A stretch of 64,000 nt of DNA from Candidatus Bathyarchaeota archaeon (GCA_963717465.1 OY970340.1:2400001-2464000); one strand, 5' to 3'. Positions 38,856 through 50,802 are shown, counted from the stretch's first letter. Notes: generated by a model from the letters alone, not told the origin. Program-made: numbers and translations.

Positions 38856-39007
38856 ACAAAACGTGGAATTTTCTTTTCATTTTTTACGCAGTCATTTTTT
38901 TTATTTTGAGCTGATGCGTTTGTGCCGCGCGTTTCCTTTAAGAGGTAGATAGAATATTTATGTGGGTGAATTGTTATTTACTTGTAAGTAGGAATCAGCT
39001 CAGGTGA

Positions 39008-39682
39008 TTGGTTGTGGAAGAGAGAAATTACGAGTGGTTTAAAAAGCGTCATAGAAGTAAGGGTTTAGAATTAGCGCATATGCAAATCAGTAAAGCCTTT
39101 GATACAGTAGCTTGGCTGAATAAGGCTGCTAAGAGTTTTTCAGAAAATGATTTTGATAAGACGTTGGAGTATGTTAGGAAGCTTTACACTTCTGAAGAAG
39201 AAGTTGACAAACTTCGGATTCAAGTGTTCAAGGAGTTGTCTACAGGCGCTGCGTTAATGGCTGATTACCGGGAAGACCTTCTGCACGTTGTAAAAAGGCT
39301 TGACACGTTAGCGGATCATACTAAGGATGCGGCTAGATGCCTTGAAATGTTAGGCAAAGCTGTGATTCCTAAGGAGCTTAGCGAAAAAGTTGTTTTCATG
39401 ACATCTAAACTGATGGAAACCGCTCAGGCCCTAAGCAACGGTATTGAAAAAATTTCATCTAATCCAGAAGGCGCCGTAACTGAGGCGAAAAAGGTAAGTG
39501 ATTTTGAACATGATCTTGACATTGAATACCTTAAGACCAAGAGCCTGTTTGTAAAGTACGGTGAACAAGTGAACTGCGGTGCCATGGTAATCTTCGATGA
39601 CTTAATAGAATTCATTGAGCAGGCAGCAGACATGTGTGCAGACACAGCAGACTACATATCAATACTGGCAAGCGGCGAGTAA
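39008..39682 (+). CDS. DUF47/PhoU-like phosphate transport regulator
   Basis: EEEVDKLR, REDL...LDTLAD, EHDLD, EQAADMCAD. Confidence 0.9.
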   Translation: MVVEERNYEWFKKRHRSKGLELAHMQISKAFDTVAWLNKAAKSFSENDFDKTLEYVRKLYTSEEEVDKLRIQVFKELSTGAALMADYREDLLHVVKRLDTLADHTKDAARCLEMLGKAVIPKELSEKVVFMTSKLMETAQALSNGIEKISSNPEGAVTEAKKVSDFEHDLDIEYLKTKSLFVKYGEQVNCGAMVIFDDLIEFIEQAADMCADTADYISILASGE

Positions 39683-39933
39683 CAAAGTTAATTTTTTATC
39701 CTTTGCTCATACAAGGCTAAACAAATTATTGGGCTTTTAAACGATTCAAAATCAAGAATAATCGCACCTTTGATTTAGTCATATTACCTTATGTTCCGTT
39801 GCAGATGTCTTATCTGTCGTTCATTCGGCCTTTTCTATCGTTCAGCATTTTACATTACTATTTGGGATGTTAAAAGTTTTTATTACTGCTTGCTCTGTTT
39901 CATTATGCTCCCTTAAAAAACATGTATCTCGAC

Positions 39934-40012
39934 GGGGCCGTCGTCTAGCTTGGATTAGGATACACGCCTGGGGCGCGTGCGATCCTGGGTTCGAATCCCA
40001 GCGGCCCCACCA
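39934..40012 (+). tRNA. trnP: tRNA-Pro(GGG) with encoded CCA
   Basis: Full cloverleaf: GGGGCCG/CGGCCCC acceptor, CACGC-CTGGGGC-GCGTG anticodon arm, CTGGG-TTCGAAT-CCCAG T arm. Confidence 0.97.
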
Positions 40013-40205
40013 CATTTCTCTAGGATAAAATCAGTTTTAATGCGTCAAAAAAGTTATCTCTAAAACAGGTATAATCCCACAACTACTCGCCGAGTTTTCA
40101 AAGACAAAATATCCGACATCAGACATAATTGCATTAAAGGAAAATTAATCTCATATTGCAGTAGGTGCTCTAAATGAGCAGCAGCATATTGCTGAGTTTG
40201 AAACA

Positions 40206-40676
40206 ATGGCAACCGCCAATCGTGTATCATTGATTGTTCCTAAGACTGAAAACTTGAATGTTGATAGTATTGGAGCTGGCGCAGGAGTTCATAGTCGACT
40301 ATTTGAACTTGGGCATAAAGCAAATTCAATCCTGGTCAGCATGGCCCCAACTAATGAGATGGATCGTTATCTTAATCAGAAATCGCAACGTTGGTGGCAT
40401 ATAAGAACTCTCTTTGAGCAAGATTTAATCAGCATCCCAAACAACCCAAAATTAATCAGTCAATTATCCCAAATGCGATACGAGTTTACAACAACAGGCA
40501 AAATTAAAATTGTAGACCCTGAAGGCAAAAGCCCCGACTACGCGGACAGTTTAATGTTAACTCTGATTGGTATGGTTAGGCCGTCTCAAGGCTCAGGCGT
40601 AGTATTTAGCATTTCCAAAGATGCATTAACAAATAGAAAAAAAGTTTTGGATATCCATGAAAATGAGAAAGATTAG
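40206..40676 (+). pseudogene. Terminase large subunit, C-terminal nuclease fragment
   Basis: NVDSIGAGAGV..RL...YLNQKSQRWW...L..QL...Y....GKIKI...KSPDYADSLML; ATPase domain absent. Confidence 0.8.
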
Positions 40677-40952
40677 TAGCGCTGTTGACGAGAAAAAATG
40701 TAGAGGTTGTAGTAAAAGCTTTCAAGCAAGAACAAAACTGGTTACTGCAAGAAGTGTTTTGGCCGCTTTGTATCAGTCCTGCAGGAATAGCTGCTAAAAC
40801 AAGATATCTGGATAAAACGTCAGACTATAGACATCAAACTTTAGATTTTAAATTTGATTGCATTTTACTTTGATATGCAATTTACTAAATGATTGGCAAT
40901 TAGCAATTTCTTATAGCAAAAATTATAACTGATTCTACAGAAATAGGAATAT

Positions 40953-41510
40953 ATGTCTGCCTCTGATAAAGACAAACGTATTCTTGAATTGGCTAAGAGT
41001 GCATACGATTTTCAAAACGACTTAAGAGAACGCCTAGATTGTAAATTAAACAATTTCGTAGGAATAACTGGAACGGTTTCGACAATTAGCGTCGGCGTTG
41101 CGTTATTTGTCTTCCAAACAATCAAACAGATTAATCCCTTTTATCCTTACTTGGTGACTGCTTTTATCATATTTTTTGGATTTCTCATCTCTGCTATGAT
41201 TATTGGATTAAGAGCCTACAGACCATCAGATTTGTTTATATATCCTGAAGATCCTGAACAAAGTATCATCGACTATTCACAATGTTTGACTGAAACTGAT
41301 GTTATCAGAGTTGTTGCAACTTCTTTCGCAGAGGCAGCTAACGAGAATAAAAAAATGAACAAGACTAAATCTAGCATATGCCAATGGGTGTTTCGTCTCT
41401 TAGTAATTGGAGCAATTGTGTTTGTGGTCTTCGCTATACTAATGGTTGCAAGCTTAGGCAATACGACTACTATAATTCAAACATATGTCACAAATCAAAC
41501 TGGAATATAA
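40953..41510 (+). CDS. 3-TM membrane protein (Pycsar-effector-like topology)
   Basis: Helix..RLDCK-TM-TM-loop-N..MN.TK-TM layout. Confidence 0.6.
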   Translation: MSASDKDKRILELAKSAYDFQNDLRERLDCKLNNFVGITGTVSTISVGVALFVFQTIKQINPFYPYLVTAFIIFFGFLISAMIIGLRAYRPSDLFIYPEDPEQSIIDYSQCLTETDVIRVVATSFAEAANENKKMNKTKSSICQWVFRLLVIGAIVFVVFAILMVASLGNTTTIIQTYVTNQTGI

Positions 41511-41937
41511 AAGGCAATCATTCGAAGAATTTGGGTATAAAACTAACACAAATCAAATAAGCATGATTGAACTATAAGAAATATAACAAAGCAAGAAAAA
41601 GGAGTAAAGAAAGTTGAGTAAATCCTGTAAAGATGCAGATACTAAGAGCCGAGCAGCAGCTCAAGCGGGTTGGAAAGCTGATAAAGCTCAAATAAAGAGA
41701 TTAAAAGAAACTAGTTCAGATTAATCCTATTTTTTAGTCCGAAAGTTTGTAAATGAATCTTTGGATTAAAGTTTAATTATCCGCAGCTGGGGGACTCGCC
41801 CGAAACCCGCTACTCCACCAAGTAATTTACAAGTGACCATTTAAAGAGTAATATTTTGGCCGGCTTGTAAGAGAATCGGGTCAATTTGGTCGCATGAAAA
41901 GAATGCTTTCACTTGAGGAGGTTAGAATGGCCCCGCC

Positions 41938-41948
41938 CGGCCCCACCA
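41938..41948 (+). repeat. tRNA-Pro 3'-end copy 1 (short)
   Basis: CGGCCCCACCA is identical to the last 11 nt of the tRNA. Confidence 0.55.
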
Positions 41949-42476
41949 ACTCAAACAAGAAAAACTACATTTCTTTCTCTTTATCTCACTACTAAACAGA
42001 ATTAAGGTTCAAGGTTTTTCCAAATTTGTTATGGTTTCAGGGAATTTTCCGGATTTTTTGCCATAACAACAGACTATTTTTTCACATATAAGCGTTGAAC
42101 TGTTTGGCATAGAAAAGGCATAGATGAAAACGTATAGGCTTAACTTTAATTCTGGTTAGGTTTTGATAAGTAAATCAATGCCCGTTAGGCTTAAAAGCGC
42201 AGATAAACTTGCCACTCCGTTATGTATCTAGTAATCATAGCGATGAACTGTAGCATAATTCAAACCTCTGTTCAGCGAAAGAGCGTCATGGTTTAGCGTT
42301 GTTTCAGTTCTGTTTTGTGGTATCTCTAATGCTTAGTTGTTAGCTATAACCGGCTTCGATAAAATCGGATATGCAGCTCATTTTTAATAGTGAGGTTTTG
42401 ACAATATTTAATCAAAGAATTTTGGTATTTCAAATCTGAAATAAGCGTTATATATTATGTATTCAATCTCGAGATT

Positions 42477-43082
42477 ATGGATTTCAACGTTAAAAGAATT
42501 ACTGGTTTGCTTTTCATTGTCTCTGTCGTACAGTTTATTTTTGCGACAATCATTTGCGAATCGGTTTATTCTGGCTATAGCGTGGGACAGCAGGTTGTGA
42601 GTGACTTGGGTAACTGGAACTTAGCGGGCAATTACTCCGCTATCTTCAACATATCGATTATTTTGATGGGCATACTTATCATTGTTGGTGCTTATTTCAT
42701 ACAACGAATATTTAAGAGCGCTTTCACGCCAGTTTTCATGTCTCTTGGGGTATTACTAGGCGTGGGTTATATCGGGGTAGGCGTGTTCGCAGAGAATATT
42801 TCTCGATTGCACAACATTTTTGCTCTAATTATGTTTGTATTTGGAGCGATTTTCGCTATTATGTCTTATAAATTCGTAAAATCGCCTTTTTCCCACGTAT
42901 CTATTATCTTGGGTGTAACATCGCTTTTAGCATATTTTCTTTGGATGTTAGGATTACAAATGCCTGTTTTCCATTTGGGCTTAGGCATAGGCGGCATGGA
43001 ACGTTTAATACTCTACCCCATACTCCTATGGGTATTAAGCTTCGGCGCTTACTTAATCGGAGACCAAGGCAACATAAAGTAA
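42477..43082 (+). CDS. DUF998-family membrane protein
   Basis: YSGYSVGQQVVSDLG, GVGVF.E, LHN, GGMERL. Confidence 0.85.
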   Translation: MDFNVKRITGLLFIVSVVQFIFATIICESVYSGYSVGQQVVSDLGNWNLAGNYSAIFNISIILMGILIIVGAYFIQRIFKSAFTPVFMSLGVLLGVGYIGVGVFAENISRLHNIFALIMFVFGAIFAIMSYKFVKSPFSHVSIILGVTSLLAYFLWMLGLQMPVFHLGLGIGGMERLILYPILLWVLSFGAYLIGDQGNIK

Positions 43083-43261
43083 AAAAAACATAAAATAAAC
43101 CAGATAACGCCCGAATGTTGACGACTTAATTTTTTTAAGTGTTCAATATCAATTTTCCGTTCAGCGGATTTTACATAATAGTTTTGATTATTTGTAAGAA
43201 AAACGAATAATAAAATAAAATCGTAACGCCACAACGTTAAAAATATTTTTATTATAAGAAT

Positions 43262-44170
43262 CTAGTTAACTTCAGCAGTTGGTTGGATGCTAACTTCAGT
43301 AATTGGTTGGATGCTAACTTCAGTAATTGGTTGGATGGCGCGTATATTATTGACAGCCTTTTTAGGAATGAAACCAATCAGCCGCTTATTTTTAAACAGA
43401 TCTTCATAAGTGGATAAATAAAATAGCCCAAACGCAATTGTCAAATAGACCACTGGTAAAACTAGACCACTTTGGCTTATTGCTACAAAAAATGGATATT
43501 GAAATAGATAGATTGGGTAAGTTAATCGACTTAGTTTTCTTGTTATGGCAGGCGCCTTTTCAATTTTTAATGGCATATGAACAGTTCTAACCCCTACGAA
43601 GAAAACAAGAAGCATGACAGGTAATTCTAAGGCGCAAACGATTAAACTTGGTGATGTTGCAAATTGCATAAATTCTAAAATAAAAGCTACAGTAAAAATT
43701 GATATTGCTATCTTAAATGAAAGCTTATTGACCATGTAAATGCTGAAAAATACGTAACACAGCATTATGAATGGGACAAACCACAATGAAAACCAAGCTG
43801 TTCCTCCAGTGCTAAGGGATTGTAGTAGAAATAAACTGGAAATTTTATAGCTAGAGGTTAGTCCAGGGGTAACGCCGAACGTAAGTACAAGTGCTATCAG
43901 GTATAGCGGATACAGCCTGAAGAATCTTTTAATGACATACTTTACAGGATTAAAATTATCATTTGAAGTAGCTTTGGCCAGAAAACCAGCTGTGTAAGCG
44001 AACAAGGCTACTCCAGTTATACCAATAAGGCAAACAGGCCACTGAAAAACCGACGAAAGCGGGACAGAGAAAATAATAGAATGCTCAATAAGCACTAAGA
44101 TGACGCCTATTACCTTTAAGTAATCAACCGCGGCCGAGTCAGATTGCGTAATACTAGGTTTAGAGTCCAA
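43262..44170 (-). CDS. Acyltransferase family 3 (OafA-like)
   Basis: DYLKVIGVILVLIEH, GVALF, KRFFRLYPLY, WF, TYPIYLFQ. Confidence 0.85.
   Translation of the reverse strand: MDSKPSITQSDSAAVDYLKVIGVILVLIEHSIIFSVPLSSVFQWPVCLIGITGVALFAYTAGFLAKATSNDNFNPVKYVIKRFFRLYPLYLIALVLTFGVTPGLTSSYKISSLFLLQSLSTGGTAWFSLWFVPFIMLCYVFFSIYMVNKLSFKIAISIFTVAFILEFMQFATSPSLIVCALELPVMLLVFFVGVRTVHMPLKIEKAPAITRKLSRLTYPIYLFQYPFFVAISQSGLVLPVVYLTIAFGLFYLSTYEDLFKNKRLIGFIPKKAVNNIRAIQPITEVSIQPITEVSIQPTAEVN
43267..43338. repeat. 3 x 24-bp in-frame tandem repeat (IQPITEVS)
   Basis: TAACTTCAG(C/T)A(G/A)TTGGTTGGATG(C/G) three times. Confidence 0.9.
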
Positions 44171-44468
44171 GGTAATTACTACAACCGATGAAATACAACC
44201 GATGAAAATCGATTATAGCCTTTGTGCGTATAAGCCTTTGACGCAAAATTTGCCATTATCAATTTTATGACTACCCAGCTAGTTACCCAAAATTACTCAG
44301 CTAATTACTCACAAACCGACATAGAATTATTGAATATCATCAAGACTTTGACCTTTGGAAAACATCAGCCAACTTGCCGTTTTAACCGCGATATAACTCT
44401 GTTATTTAAGGCGTAGGAAAGAAAAAAATGGATAATTTGCAGGATATCCCCCATTAGGGGATAAGAGC

Positions 44469-44488
44469 AAATCCCAGCGGCCCAACCA
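44469..44488 (+). repeat. tRNA-Pro 3'-end copy 2
   Basis: AAATCCCAGCGGCCCAACCA vs tRNA GAATCCCAGCGGCCCCACCA. Confidence 0.85.
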
Positions 44489-44685
44489 CGACAATCCCGT
44501 CCCAAGAATGGTATATTTATTAACATCATTTTTTTCTGTGAAGGTTTTGCCTTAAATTGGCAAGGAATAGTTGACTTTCCTCCTCGATGAAAACATGTGT
44601 AGCCTTCTTTTAGTTCAGGCCTTCGGTTCGTCTTCGTAACATTAGAGACATATAGTCCAATAGCTTATCATGGAAATAGCAAAGG

Positions 44686-45636
44686 GTGAGTTGGTTGAGT
44701 GATCAGAACATTCGATTGAACATTCGATTGAGGGAAACCAAGCGTTTTGATATGCAACGAAGAGTTGTAGCGCACATGGTTTCGGAATCGTGGTACACTA
44801 TTCCACATGTTTCCTATCTATACGAGCCAGATATAACAGATTTTTATGAAGAATTTAATTCGCTCGCAGAAAATGGAGCTTTTTCCGGGCGCAAAATATC
44901 ATTCAATACTCTCATTATCCGTGTAATAGTCGAAGGCCTCCAATCTGCGCCGAACCTAAACGCTCTAGTTTCATATAACCATAAAAAAGGGGAAGGCGAA
45001 TTGCGAATTTGTGAAGACATCAATGTGGCCATCGCTTGGTTGTTGCCGGACGGAAGGATGATAACACCAGTAATTCTCAACACTGAATCAATGACCTTGG
45101 TTGAACTTTCCGAGGCTATCACCACATTAAAAGAAAAAGTAAAAAATACTAACATAGATGAATTACTTTATCAAGCAGCATATGCAGATACCGTAAAGGA
45201 ACTTAAGAAACTGCATCTAAATGTGCTTAGGCGAATTATAGCTTCTAAAATTAGTTTTCACCGAGTACAAGGACTTTCTGGAAGAAAAAAAGGAAGCTAC
45301 TATAAAATTCCTCAAGGCGATCGTCTAACAGAACAGAACCTGGTCAGCGGTACAGTAACTGTATCTAACATTGGATCACTATACAAAGAGCAAAAAGGAT
45401 ATTTCGGTATCCTTGAAATTATTCCGCCGCAAATTTTCACTATAGGTTTAGGGGCCATGCAGGAAAGACCTGGTGTTTATGTTACTAAGGACGGCGAGAA
45501 AAAAATTGGCGCCCGAAAGGTTCTCCCAATGTGTTTAGTTTTTGATCATCGCGCCATAGATTTTGGCTCAATAATTCCTTTTCTAAAAAAATTAGACGAA
45601 ATTTTCCTAAAACCCGATGCACTTGCTCAATTGTGA
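44686..45636 (+). CDS. Stand-alone 2-oxoacid dehydrogenase E2-like acyltransferase catalytic domain
   Basis: IPHV, PNLNA, GTVTVSNIGS, IIPPQ, FDHRAID; no lipoyl domain. Confidence 0.85.
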   Translation: MSWLSDQNIRLNIRLRETKRFDMQRRVVAHMVSESWYTIPHVSYLYEPDITDFYEEFNSLAENGAFSGRKISFNTLIIRVIVEGLQSAPNLNALVSYNHKKGEGELRICEDINVAIAWLLPDGRMITPVILNTESMTLVELSEAITTLKEKVKNTNIDELLYQAAYADTVKELKKLHLNVLRRIIASKISFHRVQGLSGRKKGSYYKIPQGDRLTEQNLVSGTVTVSNIGSLYKEQKGYFGILEIIPPQIFTIGLGAMQERPGVYVTKDGEKKIGARKVLPMCLVFDHRAIDFGSIIPFLKKLDEIFLKPDALAQL

Positions 45637-45707
45637 AACTTATAAACGGTTAAAGCTTTTGTGAGCGATTCAACACTCGAACTAAGATATAAAATGGAAA
45701 GCTCATG

Positions 45708-45754
45708 GATGACGCCACCAAATAGCCAATGTTCAAATTCCAGCTGGTCCGCCA
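45708..45754 (+). repeat. Extended att-like repeat, copy 3 (degenerate)
   Basis: GATGACGCCACCAAATAGCCAAT-GTTCAAATTCCAGCTGGTCCGCCA. Confidence 0.7.
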
Positions 45755-45905
45755 CTACTTAATACCTATTTGCTTCTTGCGTTACCAAGAATCTAGTTAT
45801 TACCGAAGAATTCTGTGCCACATCAATAATTGACTTCGGTGTTTCATAGGATGAAGAAGACAGGATGTCTGAAAATCACGAAACGCAATCGGACGGGTTT
45901 TCTGG

Positions 45906-46598
45906 CTATCTTAACAATTTGATAATTTCTTTGGCTGGCAACACCCTAGCAAAACCTTTTCGCAAGACTCTTAGTTCAGGTTCTTGCATGTCGGGATCAT
46001 CTGTCGAGGTTACATCGCTCCCGAAGACAACTTTGAAGCTTCTTTCGTAGGCTTGACGGGCGGTCACCCCACAGCAATAATTTGTTAGAGTGCCACAGAT
46101 AATAACAGTGTCCTTTCCCATGTTCTTAAGTATCGTCTCTAATTGCGTATCGTAAAAAGCGCCATAAGAAGCCTTGTGGATTACTACCTCATCGTTCCCA
46201 GGTGATAATTCATCCCAAATATGTCCTTCTACAAAAAAGGAAGACTGATCAACATTCAATTCTAAATAGCGATTAGGCATAGCAGAGCCAGTCTTTGGGC
46301 GATCAAGATAATTGTTAGTTTTTGAAAAGACAGTAAAAATGACAGGTATCTTTCTGCCTCTGCAATGTTCTATCAGTCTCTTTATGAGGGGGACCTGCAT
46401 GCTTGCTTCAGGAACCCAGAAAGGTGTCCACCCCGGCTTAACGAACTCGTCCTGCATGTCGATGACAAGCAAAGCGCATTTCTCAGGCAAAATTTCGAAG
46501 CCAGCAACACCTTTTGCGTAGGCGCGTTTGGCGAGAGCTAGAACTTGTTCTTGGGTGTATGATTTATCACTCACAGCTTTCCCCTCGAGAAATTTCAT
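45906..46598 (-). CDS. Isochorismatase-like cysteine hydrolase
   Basis: ALLVIDMQ, K..Y.AF..T.L, GTLTNYCC..TAR. Confidence 0.92.
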   Translation of the reverse strand: MKFLEGKAVSDKSYTQEQVLALAKRAYAKGVAGFEILPEKCALLVIDMQDEFVKPGWTPFWVPEASMQVPLIKRLIEHCRGRKIPVIFTVFSKTNNYLDRPKTGSAMPNRYLELNVDQSSFFVEGHIWDELSPGNDEVVIHKASYGAFYDTQLETILKNMGKDTVIICGTLTNYCCGVTARQAYERSFKVVFGSDVTSTDDPDMQEPELRVLRKGFARVLPAKEIIKLLR

Positions 46599-46669
46599 TA
46601 GTCGCGCGAAAGCTTTTAGTTTTTGCTATTCTCTTAGGGCTTTTATATTTTCTGTTAAAGATTAAAAAG

Positions 46670-46715
46670 GGTGATTTCATCAAACGTCTGATGTTCAAAT
46701 CCCAGCGGCCAACCA
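46670..46715 (+). repeat. Extended att-like repeat, copy 4
   Basis: GGTGATTTCATCAAACGTCTGAT-GTTCAAATCCCAGCGGCCAACCA. Confidence 0.85.
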
Positions 46716-46907
46716 CAGGCTTATTTTTCCTAAACAACTTCTTGCCAACATTATAATTAACCAGGCACAATAAAGCTTGTTTTAGAATGGCACACTGCTT
46801 GGTCAGTATTTTGGCTGGTATGGTGTAATGGTTTTTGCTGCTTTGTTTTGTCTCGCGTTTAAAAACCGCATTCCCAACTTTATTTTCCGTTACCAGGAAC
46901 TTGGGTT

Positions 46908-47447
46908 TTAGCGGATGAACATCAAACCAAAATATGTTGGTTGTTGATTATGCGTTTTCAGAACGTCTATGTCAAAACCATTCTTCCTTGCTGTAGCATA
47001 AACGTCTATGCTGGAAGATTCCATTGAAGGTCGAGCCAACCGAGGATAATTGCAATGCTCAAGATTACATTTTTCGCAACGTTCACAGGGACCAGCTGGA
47101 AGCCCAAATGCAGAATGATACCCTGCCAGAAAAATATGCCTCTCCAATTTGGCAACCAAGTTGTGCGTCGCAACCGATTCATCGGGCAGTTTCATTAAAA
47201 TAGCGTTGGAATAACTTGCCAAAACCTGCCTCATCTTTTCAGGCGTAGGACTGTAAGGCGGACAAGTCAAGGATTTTCCAAATCCTCCACAGCCATACTG
47301 GCACTTAAGTCTTACCCAATCTTTGACAACAATACTCTTAGGATCAACCATTTTAGCATCAAGTACGCCCAATCGTTTCGCAAACTTGATAAAACCTTCA
47401 ATATCTTGCTCAAAACTCCTCTTGACCGTTGCGGTTTTCTTTTGCAC
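46908..47447 (-). CDS. DUF2284 predicted metal-binding protein
   Basis: WVRLKCQYGC..G..LTCPP, GPCERCEKC...C..P..ARPSME. Confidence 0.9.
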   Translation of the reverse strand: MQKKTATVKRSFEQDIEGFIKFAKRLGVLDAKMVDPKSIVVKDWVRLKCQYGCGGFGKSLTCPPYSPTPEKMRQVLASYSNAILMKLPDESVATHNLVAKLERHIFLAGYHSAFGLPAGPCERCEKCNLEHCNYPRLARPSMESSSIDVYATARKNGFDIDVLKTHNQQPTYFGLMFIR

Positions 47448-47681
47448 ACTGCAGCCCCCTACAACATCTTACGATGATTAAATATATAAAATGAAAAGAA
47501 ACCTGAGAGGCTGAGTGAAAAAATGTGAAGGGTACCTATTAGCCCTGTAGGCTTCGAGTTCCAATGGGCCTGGGACTCCATAGAGCCTAACTCTCTTCAA
47601 GTTTGGGGGTGAGTCCGCCCGATTCATCTTCAAACTGTTTCAAATAGTTCCAAGTGAAAATTTTAAAAAAAGGGAAAAACG

Positions 47682-47728
47682 GGTGATGCCACCGCACATC
47701 CGAGGTACAAATCCCAGCGGCCCCCACC
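47682..47728 (+). repeat. Extended att-like repeat, copy 5
   Basis: GGTGATGCCACCGCACATCCGAG-GTACAAATCCCAGCGGCCCCCACC. Confidence 0.9.
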
Positions 47729-47856
47729 GTGATAAAAGCACTCGTTTCATAGCTCTTTTGTCACAATCTGCCAGTTCGAAAATAACGTTCTTTTAAAGAA
47801 CCCTTCACATAGCTTATAAGTAAGAATATTCTTACTTCATTGATTGTGGAAGCAAA

Positions 47857-48114
47857 ATGGAAGCATCAACAACAAAGGTCTCCTCCAAAGGGCAAGTAGT
47901 GATCCCTGCGAACGTGCGAAAAGCTGCTAGCTTGAAGAAAGGCGAAAAAATCCTAGCAATAGCCATAGGTGACACCATCGTCTTGAAAAAAATAGTTGAC
48001 AGATCATTTGAGGAAACGATGAAACCAATTTGGGCCAGAGTTAGGCGAATGGGTCTTATGGAGGAAGAAATAAACGCCCTTATCGACGAAGCGAAAGCCA
48101 AAGATAGTTCTTGA
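47857..48114 (+). CDS. AbrB/MazE-type antitoxin
   Basis: TKVSSKGQVVIPANVRK. Confidence 0.92.
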   Translation: MEASTTKVSSKGQVVIPANVRKAASLKKGEKILAIAIGDTIVLKKIVDRSFEETMKPIWARVRRMGLMEEEINALIDEAKAKDSS

Positions 48115-48511
48115 TACAAATATTTGGGTTTCAGCGCTACTGTGGGGAGGAAAGCCTGCAGAGATCGTAAAAATAGCTGAAGAAGACAAAGTCTTAATCT
48201 TCACAACTGAAGAAATAGTTGCAGAAATCAGCCAAGTTTTAGCTTATAATAAGCTTGCGAAAATCTACGAAGCCGAAGGCGTACATCGCGACCAATTAAT
48301 GGAAATGGTGCTAAAAATTGCTAAATTAGTAAAGGCAACAAAAAAAGTTACGGTTGTTCTTGCGCATCCCGCCGACGATAAAGTAATAGAATGTTCCTTG
48401 GCAGCCAAAGCAGATTACATTGTAAGTGGCGACAAGCACATTCTCGCACTGAAAAGCCACAACAGAACAAAAATATTGTCTGCTAACGAATTTCTTGAGA
48501 GCATAAAATAA
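48086..48511 (+). CDS. PIN-family toxin (PIN_3-like); no canonical start before the first catalytic Asp
   Basis: Frame reads (ACG)KRKPKIVLDTNIWVSAL...DDKVIECSL...ADYIVSGDKHIL; the ORF track caught only the 3' half. Confidence 0.8.
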   Translation, partial: TKRKPKIVLDTNIWVSALLWGGKPAEIVKIAEEDKVLIFTTEEIVAEISQVLAYNKLAKIYEAEGVHRDQLMEMVLKIAKLVKATKKVTVVLAHPADDKVIECSLAAKADYIVSGDKHILALKSHNRTKILSANEFLESIK

Positions 48512-48525
48512 AAAAGGAAAAAACA

Positions 48526-48572
48526 GGTGATGCCACGGCACATCCGAGGTACAAATCCCAGCGGCCCTACCA
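48526..48572 (+). repeat. Extended att-like repeat, copy 6
   Basis: GGTGATGCCACGGCACATCCGAG-GTACAAATCCCAGCGGCCCTACCA; nearly identical to copy 5. Confidence 0.9.
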
Positions 48573-48678
48573 CAACGAACAGAGGCTATTATGTGAGCCT
48601 GCAGAAAACAACTGTAATAGAAGCAAGAGTGGGTTTTTATAAGTCCAAGAACTAAAAAATTGAAGGGACTAATAGAAA

Positions 48679-48858
48679 ATGGGTCATTATGTGGGAATAA
48701 AGGAAAACGCTAAACCATTAATATTTGAGAGCGAAAAAGAACCTAACAAGGAAACGCACGCTCAATACGATATAGTTTACGGACCCTTCAAGAATAAAGA
48801 ATATGCAGAAAAGTACGTTAACACGATGGAACATGGTGTTTGCTGCCATCTGGGTTAA
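48679..48858 (+). CDS. Small hypothetical protein (59 aa)
   Basis: Manual translation MGHYVGIKEN...VYGPFKNKEYAEKY. Confidence 0.5.
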   Translation: MGHYVGIKENAKPLIFESEKEPNKETHAQYDIVYGPFKNKEYAEKYVNTMEHGVCCHLG

Positions 48859-49002
48859 CGCTCCCACAAATACCAAATTTTCAATTTTTTCAACAATCGA
48901 CACATGCTACCAACAGAGACATAATATTGTCTCTTAGCCAGTTTTCTCATCAATAAATTATCTTGAAAAAACTCAAATAACCCATTTTAAATTCTTTAGG
49001 TA

Positions 49003-50802
49003 GTGGAGAATAAACCGTTGATTGACAAGCCAGTTACATGGAACCTAACAGAATTTTTCAGCAGCATAACAGACCCCAAAATAAATCTGGCCATAGAAGA
49101 ACCTAAATCTTTGGCTGACAAAATTGAGAAGACTTATCGAGGCAAAATCGCCAAGTTGTCTGCGCAACAACTGCTTTCTTGTCTTCAAGAAATGGAAGCA
49201 TTCACTCTAAAATTTGGCGACTTAGCCTTGTACGCGAGTCTTTCATTTGCTGCAAACATGACACTGCCAGAAACGCAATCGCTAAATGACCGTGTTAGCA
49301 AACTTGATGCTGCCATTAGTAAGCAGTTAGCGTTTTTCTCTCTGGAGCTGGGCGCACTTGTTAAAGCTAAACCTCAGATTATCCAAGAGCCAGCTTTAGC
49401 TAATTATAAACATGTGCTTGAACGAGTCTTGCTTCGGGTTGAGCATCAGCTGTCTGAAGTTGAAGAGCAACTAATTATTGAAAAGGACCAGTTTGGCGTA
49501 AATGGTTGGGAAGAACTTCAGAGCAAGTGGCTTAACACCCGCATGTTCGAAGTAATGGTTATGGGCGAGAAAAAAACACTCTCATATGCAGAAGCAAACG
49601 GATTGCTTTCTCACCCAGACCGCTCAACCAGAGAATCAGCTAACCGATCGATTTATGGACTCTTGGGCAAGGATGGCGAGGTTTTCTCTTCATCTCTTCG
49701 GAACATATGCAATGACTGGGTGAATGTTTCTAAACGCCGCAAATACAGTTCCCCAATAGAATCAAGCATAATTGCAAACGATACCAAACAGAGCATCGTC
49801 GATAACTTGCTCGGCGTAGTTGAAGACGGTGTTAAGACTTATCAGCGGTATTTGAAACTGAAGGCTAAATTGATGGGGTTGCCAGTTTTGGGAAATCATG
49901 ATATCGTCGCACCCTTACCGGGCATGCCAGAATTAAAGTTTTCATTCAATCAAGCACAAAAACTAATAACTAAAGCTTACAGCCGCTTCGACAATCAATA
50001 CGTGGACGCAATTAAGGAAATGTTTGCTAAAAATCGCATCGACGCTCAACCCCGCTTTGGCAAACGCAACGGCGCCTTCTGCGCAAGCTACTATAATGGA
50101 AAATCAGCTTTTATTCTGGAAAGCTTCAACGGAACCTTAAGCGATGTCTTCACTCTGGCACATGAGCTTGGACATGCAACGCACGATTGGTATGCATCGC
50201 GAAGTCAAACGCTCATGAATACGGCTATGCCCTCAATCGTTGCTGAAACAGCATCAATTTTCGGCGAACTCCTACTTACCGACCAAATGATAGAAGACGC
50301 AAAAACAGATGCAGAACGCAAGATGGTGCTCTGCCATATCTTAGATGAAGCGGGCATGACAGCGTTTCAAGTGACGGCACGTGTCTGGTTCGAGCAAGCA
50401 CTCTACGATTCCATCGCAAAAGACGAGTTTTTGGATTACCCAACCATTTGTCGCCACTGGACAAAAAACCGTGACCGCATTTTCGGAAATGCAGTAGAAT
50501 GGTTCCCCGAAATGGAAGCAGAATGGACAATGAAACCGCACTATTTCATGGCGAATTACCGCTTTTACAATTACCCTTACGTTTACGCTCAAATGTTCGT
50601 TTATGCACTATACGAGAAATACCTGCAGGAACACAAATCCTTCGTACCTAAATTGAAAAAGGCCCTTTCAGCAGGCAGCAGCGTTTCGCCAATTGAAATT
50701 GGAAAAATAATGGACTTGGATGTCGCGGATCCAAATTTCTGGAAACTTGGGGTAAAAAGGTTTGAGCACTTTATTACCGAGCTAGAAAAAATTAAAATTT
50801 AA
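49003..50802 (+). CDS. pepF: Oligoendopeptidase F (M3B)
   Basis: WNLTEFF, GKRNGAFC, TLAHELGHATH, AETAS.F.E, FYNYPY. Confidence 0.93.
   Translation: MENKPLIDKPVTWNLTEFFSSITDPKINLAIEEPKSLADKIEKTYRGKIAKLSAQQLLSCLQEMEAFTLKFGDLALYASLSFAANMTLPETQSLNDRVSKLDAAISKQLAFFSLELGALVKAKPQIIQEPALANYKHVLERVLLRVEHQLSEVEEQLIIEKDQFGVNGWEELQSKWLNTRMFEVMVMGEKKTLSYAEANGLLSHPDRSTRESANRSIYGLLGKDGEVFSSSLRNICNDWVNVSKRRKYSSPIESSIIANDTKQSIVDNLLGVVEDGVKTYQRYLKLKAKLMGLPVLGNHDIVAPLPGMPELKFSFNQAQKLITKAYSRFDNQYVDAIKEMFAKNRIDAQPRFGKRNGAFCASYYNGKSAFILESFNGTLSDVFTLAHELGHATHDWYASRSQTLMNTAMPSIVAETASIFGELLLTDQMIEDAKTDAERKMVLCHILDEAGMTAFQVTARVWFEQALYDSIAKDEFLDYPTICRHWTKNRDRIFGNAVEWFPEMEAEWTMKPHYFMANYRFYNYPYVYAQMFVYALYEKYLQEHKSFVPKLKKALSAGSSVSPIEIGKIMDLDVADPNFWKLGVKRFEHFITELEKIKI

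Follow-up and report, generated by a model that had tools for sequence, protein, structure and literature searches.

A stretch of 64,000 nucleotides from Candidatus Bathyarchaeota archaeon (GCA_963717465.1 OY970340.1:2400001-2464000; hereafter the window, at its full length) contains a tRNA-Pro(GGG) gene followed, between positions 39,934 and 48,572, by six further copies of the 3' end of that gene, and these copies divide the DNA into six short units that each carry one or two genes (Table 1). The source genome, designated G000, is a single contig of 3,053,889 bp with 40% G+C and encodes 38 tRNAs according to ARAGORN, just one of which, tRNA-Pro(GGG), lies inside the window. Every one of the six downstream copies is found on the strand of the tRNA, and the core-to-core spacings are 1944, 2532, 1266, 962, 1012 and 844 nt. 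These measurements confirm a first-pass annotation of this DNA, made from sequence alone, which had described a recurring tRNA 3' end bounding six units (1.9, 2.5, 1.3, 0.96, 1.0 and 0.84 kb) with the gene contents given in Table 1. From unit 1 to unit 6 the genes lie on strands +,+ / +,- / + / - / - / +,+, and the unit contents are unrelated, mostly intact genes in mixed orientation, again as described earlier. Units 2 to 6 have the core on both sides and no integrase inside; moreover, a search for the Phage_integrase domain (PF00589) gave no match in the window, in agreement with the earlier remark that no integrase is present there, and all four G000 matches lie elsewhere in the genome. Segmental duplication was ruled out as the origin of the array, since the units have no common sequence beyond the repeats. 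Comparisons were made within the GTDB genus of G000, represented by at least 120 species genomes (119 besides G000), together with metagenome contigs and viral contigs. Identity of the PepF protein, which is encoded in the chromosomal flank of the array, is 68-75% between G000 and its genus relatives among the full-length matches listed, so that no close relative of G000 is available for comparison.

Table 1 Features of the tRNA-Pro(GGG) array and its distal flank, in window positions, and tRNAs of G000 with short repeat-bounded units, in genome positions.
Feature	Position	Strand	Evidence and remarks
tRNA-Pro(GGG)	39934-40012	+	ARAGORN; last ~21 nt form the attachment core (attL side)
Terminase large subunit fragment, C-terminal third (unit 1)	40206-40676	+	phrog_2, E 1.4e-6
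Predicted membrane protein, 185 aa (unit 1)	40953-41510	+	no family match
Copy 1	41925-41948 (approximate)	+	short, with indel (absent from gap-free repeat family); holds exact 11-mer CGGCCCCACCA
DUF998 membrane protein (unit 2)	42477-43082	+	Pfam E 3.3e-16, full profile
Acyltransferase 3 family protein, Acyl_transf_3 (unit 2)	43262-44170	-	Pfam E 6.3e-14; phrog_3333 O-acetyltransferase
Copy 2	44458-44490	+	exact 14-nt core; B-type upstream arm
Stand-alone 2-oxoacid dehydrogenase E2 catalytic-domain protein, 2-oxoacid_dh (unit 3)	44686-45636	+	Pfam E 7.9e-35
Copy 3	45724-45756	+	core most mutated of all copies
Isochorismatase-family cysteine hydrolase (unit 4)	45906-46598	-	intact; Pfam E 1.7e-33, full profile
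Copy 4	46654-46718 (33-nt repeat 46686-46718)	+	A-type arm and core
DUF2284 metal-binding protein (unit 5)	46908-47447	-	intact; Pfam E 1.3e-40
Degenerate relic of a second, different tRNA-like attachment fragment (unit 5)	47536-47575	+	upstream of DUF2284
Copy 5	47666-47730 (33-nt repeat 47698-47730)	+	A-type arm and core; near family consensus
AbrB/MazE-type antitoxin (unit 6)	47857-48114	+	Pfam E 1.2e-9
PIN_3 toxin gene (unit 6)	48104-48511	+	
Copy 6	48510-48574 (33-nt repeat 48542-48574)	+	A-type arm and core; arm starts at PIN stop codon
59-aa open reading frame, distal flank	48679-48858	+	outside repeat-bounded units; nucleotide-level conservation in many genus genomes; second G000 copy
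Oligoendopeptidase F (Peptidase_M3, PepF), chromosomal flank gene	49003-50802	+	adjoins tRNA-Pro in 0/16 relatives examined
tRNA-Leu(GAG)	genome 626912-626999		units of 726 and 772 nt, a PIN gene in each
tRNA-Thr(CGT)	genome 2756958-2757034		unit of 746 nt
tRNA-Gly(TCC)	genome 405153-405231		unit of 963 nt, CAAX-protease-like gene
tRNA-Val(GAC)	genome 851622-851699		unit of 1648 nt, ParE and PIN
tRNA-Ser(GCT)	genome 184475-184561		unit of 2014 nt, Fic and DNA glycosylase
tRNA-Pro(TGG)	genome 103571-103648		unit of 2809 nt

The signal that defines the array resides in exact copies of the core and not in a loose-mismatch scan. Exact matches to the 14-nt core AAATCCCAGCGGCC number four in the whole genome, in every case on the + strand between 44469 and 48566; the exact core is confined to this locus, and the genome-wide scatter that would have spoken against the first-pass annotation is not seen. 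When one mismatch is allowed, eight genome sites are obtained, comprising the four exact ones, tRNA-Pro(GGG) itself, a site at 1411657 (-) and two sites in other tRNA genes. A scan of the window at up to three mismatches is not significant alone (6 found versus 4.02 expected, with 6 reached in 21 of 100 shuffles). A gap-free repeat search of the window resolved five + strand copies of the last 33 nt of the tRNA at 61-85% identity, together with a longer 58-nt repeat family that consists of copies 4-6 (71%, 100% and 95%) and in which copies 5 and 6 are 95% identical to each other. Copy 1 has only a terminal 11-mer and a T-loop-like stretch in common with the tRNA; this 11-mer represents the tRNA acceptor strand plus CCA and occurs twice genome-wide, in tRNA-Pro(GGG) and at 41938. 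The tRNA-Pro(GGG) of G000 contains CGAAT versus CAAAT in all downstream copies, and CAAAT is found inside tRNA-Pro(GGG) itself in 19 of 20 relatives. A solitary copy that carries the G variant of the tRNA is located at genome position 1411657 (-) (L111 ~8657), 1 Mb from tRNA-Pro(GGG), in the surroundings of a transposase fragment, HEPN/MNT and PIN toxin-antitoxin genes and a ParA-like gene, and this copy could either derive from the array by displacement or mark the site of a different element.

Is such an arrangement peculiar to tRNA-Pro(GGG)? For all 38 tRNAs, the terminal ~22 nt were used in a scan at up to four mismatches, across 60 kb on each side and on both strands, and 17 non-tRNA copies were recovered at 11 tRNAs, with 17 of 17 located on the strand of the tRNA and 3' of it. 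A control scan performed with tRNA 5' ends yielded only tRNA-to-tRNA cross matches. This 3'-only, same-strand asymmetry is the signature of integrase-made attachment (att) sites of the attR type, to which the repeats are assigned. At the six other tRNAs listed in Table 1 (loci L101-L105 and L108), no integrase is present among the open reading frames (ORFs) scanned in the short units, which carry the genes given in Table 1 or unknown ORFs. Toxin-antitoxin genes predominate in the short units at other tRNAs, and a possible explanation is that, when an element decays, its addictive modules are what the cell can dispense with last. The micro-unit pattern is thus genome-wide and not restricted to tRNA-Pro(GGG).

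Relatives of G000 contain a dedicated integrase clade beside the same tRNA, which supports the earlier assignment of the repeats as att-type scars of tyrosine-recombinase integration. In G052, a convergent 312-aa tyrosine integrase lies 39 nt after tRNA-Pro(GGG) and is followed by a second integrase, an RNA ligase and a Schlafen/ATPase gene, and this intact element has an A-rich arm and a copy of the tRNA tail at 6.2 kb from the tRNA. Integrases that are 63-80% identical to that of G052 adjoin tRNA-Pro(GGG) in six of nine loci as judged by ARAGORN (G052, G118, whose protein has 428 aa, G127, G094, G115 and G079); a seventh, in G087, lies beside an interrupted tRNA-like sequence, and in G059 and G076 the coordinates place a tRNA-Pro-clade integrase beside tRNA-Pro(GGG). 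Apart from G052, no second core was found beside these integrases in stretches of up to 20 kb. Members of the wider integrase family were detected in 104 of 120 genus genomes, and a single genome can contain as many as 18 matches. The tRNA-Pro clade itself is absent from G000, where the best match is a 41% identical integrase beside tRNA-His, and a tblastn comparison of the G052 integrases with the array gave no match. This tRNA-His integrase, encoded at genome position 2397353-2398669 (-) (L112:12352-13668; 439 aa), is the G000 integrase nearest to the window, ~2 kb before its start and on the 5' side of tRNA-His, and is the sole apparently intact member of the integrase family in G000, with its 41% identity measured against the tRNA-Pro integrase of G052. 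An AbrB-PIN pair (L112:9660-10272) is located near it.

Copies in which arm and core together form a conserved ~60-nt sequence are referred to here as A type, and the other arm, seen at copy 2, as B type. Upstream of the core in copies 4-6, the arm consists of an A-rich run, an inverted-repeat motif GTGA-nn-TCAC and a diverged tRNA T-arm region. A 27-nt piece of this arm is found at up to three mismatches in 7 of 120 genus genomes including G000, with further copies in G133 and G081, and a degenerate arm pattern recovered six metagenome contigs and no viral contigs. Alignment of 18 A-type copies, derived from nine genus genomes including G000 and six metagenome contigs, resolves a ~60-nt consensus in which most columns are at least 80% conserved. 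Identity of the A-type copies to the tRNA is confined to ~21 nt at their 3' end; the remainder is element sequence and is therefore assigned as the P arm of attR. The genes beside the A-type arm differ in every case examined, and of 96 ORFs lying up to 7 kb from eight A-type copies toward the element, or up to 3.5 kb away in the opposite direction, none matched Phage_integrase. Both ends are defined for six A-type units, namely the three in the window and one each in G117 (1.06 kb), metagenome contig L233 (2.06 kb) and G133 (2.96 kb). A full-size element ending in an A-type arm was searched for and none was found, and at their left ends the units have no conserved sequence in common. The B-type arm of copy 2 is also present in the copy behind the AbrB-PIN operon of G020. 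Given copies with an A-type arm, copies with a B-type arm, and copy 1, at least three kinds of element must have used the tRNA-Pro(GGG) site.

Signs of erosion are evident in unit 1. Its terminase ORF starts 190 nt downstream of the tRNA, matches the protein over the final third only, and has an upstream frame filled with stop codons. The fragment is 73-78% identical at the amino acid level to residues ~304-424 of 435/436-aa ORFs in G118 and G127, and the G118 ORF matches phrog_2 with E 3.6e-30. The conserved genes that lie downstream of these ORFs in G118 and G127 are absent from unit 1. An array of the same att type in G002 reads, in order, core, AbrB-PIN, a pseudo-tRNA (positions 6-79), a 133-aa integrase C-terminal stump, ThiC and other genes, and core. 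Within G000, tRNA-Val(TAC) is associated with a frameshifted integrase in a 6.8-kb repeat-bounded element, and integrase C-terminal stumps lie alongside tRNA-Cys and tRNA-Lys. Integrases in the intact state (G052), the frameshifted state (tRNA-Val(TAC)), the stump state (G002, tRNA-Cys and tRNA-Lys) and the absent state (the array) therefore all exist. No unit of the array could be matched to a full-size parent element. On contig C7 of G127 (L222, L227), a tRNA-Pro-clade integrase lies beside tRNA-Pro(GGG) and a 435-aa terminase ORF is located ~30 kb away; this ORF is a homolog of that of G118, is 74% identical to the window fragment over 121 residues, and is followed by ORFs sized as in G118. 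The arrangement in G127 is possibly a large provirus at the tRNA-Pro(GGG) site, for which no far boundary was found.

Among the remaining units, the E2-like protein of unit 3 is full length for a stand-alone family of 302-309 aa, and its PDB matches are restricted to catalytic domains. Most named members of this family, at 55-66% identity, come from Clostridia and other bacteria. The protein is without lipoyl or E3-binding domains and the gene is without E1 or E3 neighbours. The unit 3 gene is a candidate for bacteria-to-archaea transfer. The isochorismatase of unit 4 is 70-79% identical to ~222-aa proteins of several archaeal and bacterial phyla, and neither the unit 3 gene nor the unit 4 gene has a nucleotide-level relative in the 119 other genus genomes. 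In unit 6, a palindromic operator at ~47814-47838 precedes the AbrB-PIN operon and is kept in eight aligned relatives as well as in G002 and G024. The PIN frame is open from shortly past the end of the antitoxin gene, but ATG, GTG and TTG are all missing from its N-terminal part and a canonical start is not reached until 48299; the gene may use an unusual start codon or the toxin may be disabled. The first-pass annotation had suggested that this distal toxin-antitoxin pair may stabilize the array. A paralog of the DUF998 protein of unit 2, 37% identical, is encoded beside tRNA-Pro(TGG) at L101:837-1502, so that DUF998 is found at both proline tRNA loci.

If single units were mobile, breakpoints between genomes would be expected at the repeats, as the first-pass annotation had proposed, and the two comparisons that could be made do not place them there. 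Close orthologs of the DUF2284 gene occur in 7 of the 119 other genus genomes (90% identity at the amino acid level and 86% at the nucleotide level in G013; 85% in G056). The similarity to G013 and G056 spans 46879-47563 and stops 160 nt and ~100 nt inside unit 5. The neighbours differ, with an amidohydrolase and a GNAT gene in G013 and G056, and tblastn detected no remnant of these neighbours in unit 5 below E 0.68. The shared block ends in the tRNA-like relic at 47536-47575, and related fragments are found upstream of the G013 and G056 orthologs; since the relic lies within the shared block, the DUF2284 gene must have arrived with an older scar from another array. The closest comparable pair is G133 and L233, whose chromosomal flanks are 88% identical. 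Between the tRNA and the A-type arm, G133 carries an ABC-2 transporter and a regulator versus an MFS transporter in L233, and the counterpart of the tRNA in G133 is a pseudo-tRNA. The left breakpoint of this pair falls exactly at the tRNA end, and the right breakpoint is located 380-510 nt past the core, at a place where no degenerate core is seen.

The AbrB-PIN operon has nucleotide-level relatives in roughly 30 genus genomes and allows for a comparison of att context. Pro-type cores lie on both sides of the operon in G000 and G002 and one lies behind it in G020, whereas in G024 the operon is found 39 nt after the tRNA, after which the contig ends, and other contexts are seen in G003, G071, G019 and others. 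As the att type behind the operon varies between genomes, the operon and the site are not one fixed travelling piece. Downstream copies at the tRNA-Pro(GGG) loci of 20 relatives are present in G045 only (two copies, with units of 1.5 and 3.8 kb), and six of these loci are truncated by contig ends. In at least ten metagenome-assembled relatives, of which G041, G054, G066, G071, G050, G018, G024, G005, G055 and G057 are examples, the contig ends inside or within ~2 kb downstream of tRNA-Pro(GGG). Variation or repetition of the site within populations would be expected to produce such contig ends, and fragmented assemblies could also be the explanation.

We hypothesize that the array was produced by accretion of integrative elements at the tRNA, through serial integration followed by heavy reduction to integrase-less, att-flanked modules, and we regard this as the probable explanation, held with moderate confidence. 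Elements of the tyrosine-integrase family would recombine the ~21-nt core with the identical 3' end of the tRNA, which would be rebuilt from the copy carried by the element and stay intact, and the displaced tail copy would be left at the far end of the element as attR. The CGAAT versus CAAAT difference may be due to such rebuilding of the tRNA by an element, or the A may come from the element side of the crossover. Repeated integrations would stack elements head to tail, with new arrivals pushing older ones outward; copy 1 would then be the newest scar, and its exact match to the present terminal 11-mer of the tRNA fits this order. Each element would subsequently lose its integrase and most of its genes, leaving in every unit a core, the arm from the element side and no more than one or two genes, either cargo or toxin-antitoxin. 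A cognate integrase arriving later could excise or move any segment between two direct cores, which would amount to a latent integron-like behavior. We infer the order of these events, that every unit was once larger, and that the array is now inert. Erosion of successive elements, which the first-pass annotation had offered as its alternative, fits better than its preferred explanation given the cut terminase, the G002 integrase stump and the stumps beside other G000 tRNAs.

A number of observations weigh against reduction from larger elements. No deletion event was observed directly. In each of units 3-6, a single intact gene or operon leaves hardly any DNA to spare, and nothing in the way of pseudogene debris was detected. 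Although a C-terminal integrase stump survives at other tRNAs and in G002, no integrase trace is present beside the tRNA or the six copies of the array, and a profile of nine tRNA-Pro-clade integrases searched against six-frame peptides of the array gave nothing, the best E value being 0.28. None of the 18 A-type copies has an integrase nearby, and the six A-type units with both ends defined are all small (0.84-2.96 kb) and integrase-less. Copies 5 and 6 closely match the cross-species arm consensus, though PepF is only 68-75% identical in the same genomes; the corresponding insertions are therefore not ancient, yet the units are already ~1 kb.

How else could such a row of units be explained? 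Many of the same observations would suit cassettes that were small from the start, each consisting of one gene or operon and the ~60-nt arm-core as a portable attP, moved as a circle by an integrase that a passing element of the same family provides in trans; the array would then work as an integron lacking attC. This was the preferred explanation of the first-pass annotation, and we consider it possible, though doubtful. Conservation of arm and core in 18 copies beside differing neighbor genes is as expected for such cassettes, as are the small, integrase-less A-type units, the different cargo held between 88%-identical flanks in G133 and L233, the freedom of the array from integrase debris, and units 3 and 4, which are intact, have no nucleotide relative in the genus and have named relatives in other phyla or in Bacteria. 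The AbrB-PIN operon can be cited on both sides, since its recurrence next to Pro-type att sites in G000, G002 and G020, and next to the tRNA in G024, counts in favor of such cassettes, but the att types differ across genomes and gene and site are thus not one piece. Against the explanation, the enzyme that would be required is missing: G000, G117 and G133, which carry tRNA-adjacent A-type units, are all without a tRNA-Pro-clade integrase, with best matches that are 41-43% identical or have E 4e-37, and in G000 that best match lies beside tRNA-His. Moreover, the units lack a conserved left end, both breakpoint comparisons miss the repeats, and unit 1 is demonstrably a fragment. A broader form of the same idea holds that the arm-core is a genus-wide portable site, with single genes and operons, some of bacterial origin and some encoding toxin-antitoxin pairs, leaving as small circles that are stacked at tRNAs by trans-acting integrases of the expanded family. 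We judge this form unlikely; if true, the portable arm-core would be a tRNA-anchored functional analogue of integrons and would explain the short repeat-bounded units at many G000 tRNAs.

Two further explanations account poorly for the repeats. The copies might be host signals, namely tRNA-like processing or termination elements that punctuate transcripts, instead of recombination scars. The arm is A-rich on the + strand and hence gives a T-run on the - strand, which is a possible archaeal terminator, and in copy 6 the PIN stop codon is where the arm starts. However, the copies cannot form a tRNA T-arm or acceptor helix as judged from their sequence, Rfam at E <= 0.1 matches only the real tRNA in 39000-49500, the copies lie on one strand irrespective of gene orientation, and the same site family is tied to tRNA-adjacent integrases in relatives. 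For these reasons a host-signal function is very improbable. The array also bears a superficial likeness to a true integron, or to the clusters of attC sites lacking an integron integrase (CALIN), in having serial small gene units with a distal toxin-antitoxin pair, and one could suppose that an unusual recombination site is used. Yet the window holds no integrase, the orientations are mixed, the toxin-antitoxin operon has its own operator/promoter region, and the repeats are copies of tRNA-end sequence and not hairpins: when both strands of copies 5 and 6 were folded as DNA, the z-scores lay between -0.18 and 0.37. The earlier statement that the repeats are not attC sites is upheld by these folds, and a true integron is scarcely credible here.

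Reduced tRNA-site elements are, at the basic level, an ordinary explanation, since tandem tRNA integration followed by integrase loss is textbook for archaeal mobile elements. Two papers describe archaeal tyrosine-recombinase elements that integrate in tandem at one site and integrase genes that are lost after integration (PMC6563490 and PMC8371274, citing Krupovic & Bamford 2008; Krupovic et al. 2010, 2019). The array resembles the tandem arrays of those papers in re-use of one tRNA site, in direct tRNA 3'-end repeats that bound elements, and in integrase loss. It differs in scale: tRNA gene fragments are treated as integration remnants in PMC9897764, where the inserts quoted are ~9-23 kb, whereas the intact elements seen here are 6-7 kb and the array units 0.84-2.5 kb. 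It differs further in comprising six consecutive integrase-less units, three of which have a 60-nt arm conserved across species.

Other known systems share part of this organization. In the "gene capture" attributed to She et al. in 2001 and 2004, foreign genes are reportedly trapped at a tRNA after integrase loss or disruption, with att repeats as borders, and the SSV-type integrases involved are said to split their own gene on integration and to leave intN and intC fragments. The array is similar in that att-bordered foreign genes lie beside a tRNA without an integrase, and dissimilar in that the integrase stays whole beside the tRNA in G052 and others and the array has no integrase fragment. 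Cis-mobilizable elements (CIMEs), known from streptococcal accretion, are att-flanked, integrase-less segments that lie in tandem with other elements and can be moved by the integrase of a neighbor. The units described here are likewise att-flanked, without recombination or transfer genes and in tandem at one site; CIMEs, by contrast, are bacterial, associated with conjugative elements and few per locus, whereas this locus belongs to an archaeon and holds six units whose mobilization is hypothetical. Chromosomal superintegrons carry toxin-antitoxin cassettes, and the array is comparable to integrons in its serial small units of unrelated genes, its toxin-antitoxin pair and at least one bacterial-looking gene. 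It is unlike them in having no IntI, no attI or Pc and no attC hairpin, in having a tRNA gene at its head, in a site made of the tRNA tail and a sequence-conserved arm, in cassettes that are not co-oriented, and in a toxin-antitoxin operon that keeps its operator region. Integrons have been reported in Archaea, according to a preprint (10.1101/2022.02.06.479319).

New here are the gene-sized scale of the units, a portable arm that is conserved, and a pattern that recurs at many tRNAs. The open-access literature searched contains no description of archaeal tRNAs followed by rows of integrase-less, gene-sized units that share a conserved arm, although so limited a search cannot show absence. The pattern suggests that tRNA sites in this archaeal genus are a main entry and storage point for accessory genes. 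If units can be moved singly, ordinary tRNA-site integrases would here have given rise to an integron-like platform for gene capture; if they cannot, the array would provide a clear, datable series for the whittling-down of elements and for the question of why toxin-antitoxin genes remain.

The chromosomal context of the locus was also compared between species. No tRNA-Pro is present within ~18 kb upstream of pepF in 16 relatives, and pepF is the only window gene in common. Anchoring the comparison on tRNA-Pro(GGG) in 20 relatives revealed almost no window gene common to either flank. Gene order around both pepF and tRNA-Pro(GGG) thus differs between G000 and other species of the genus, and the genes that flank tRNA-Pro(GGG) in G047 and G045 have their G000 counterparts scattered between 0.1 and 3.0 Mb.

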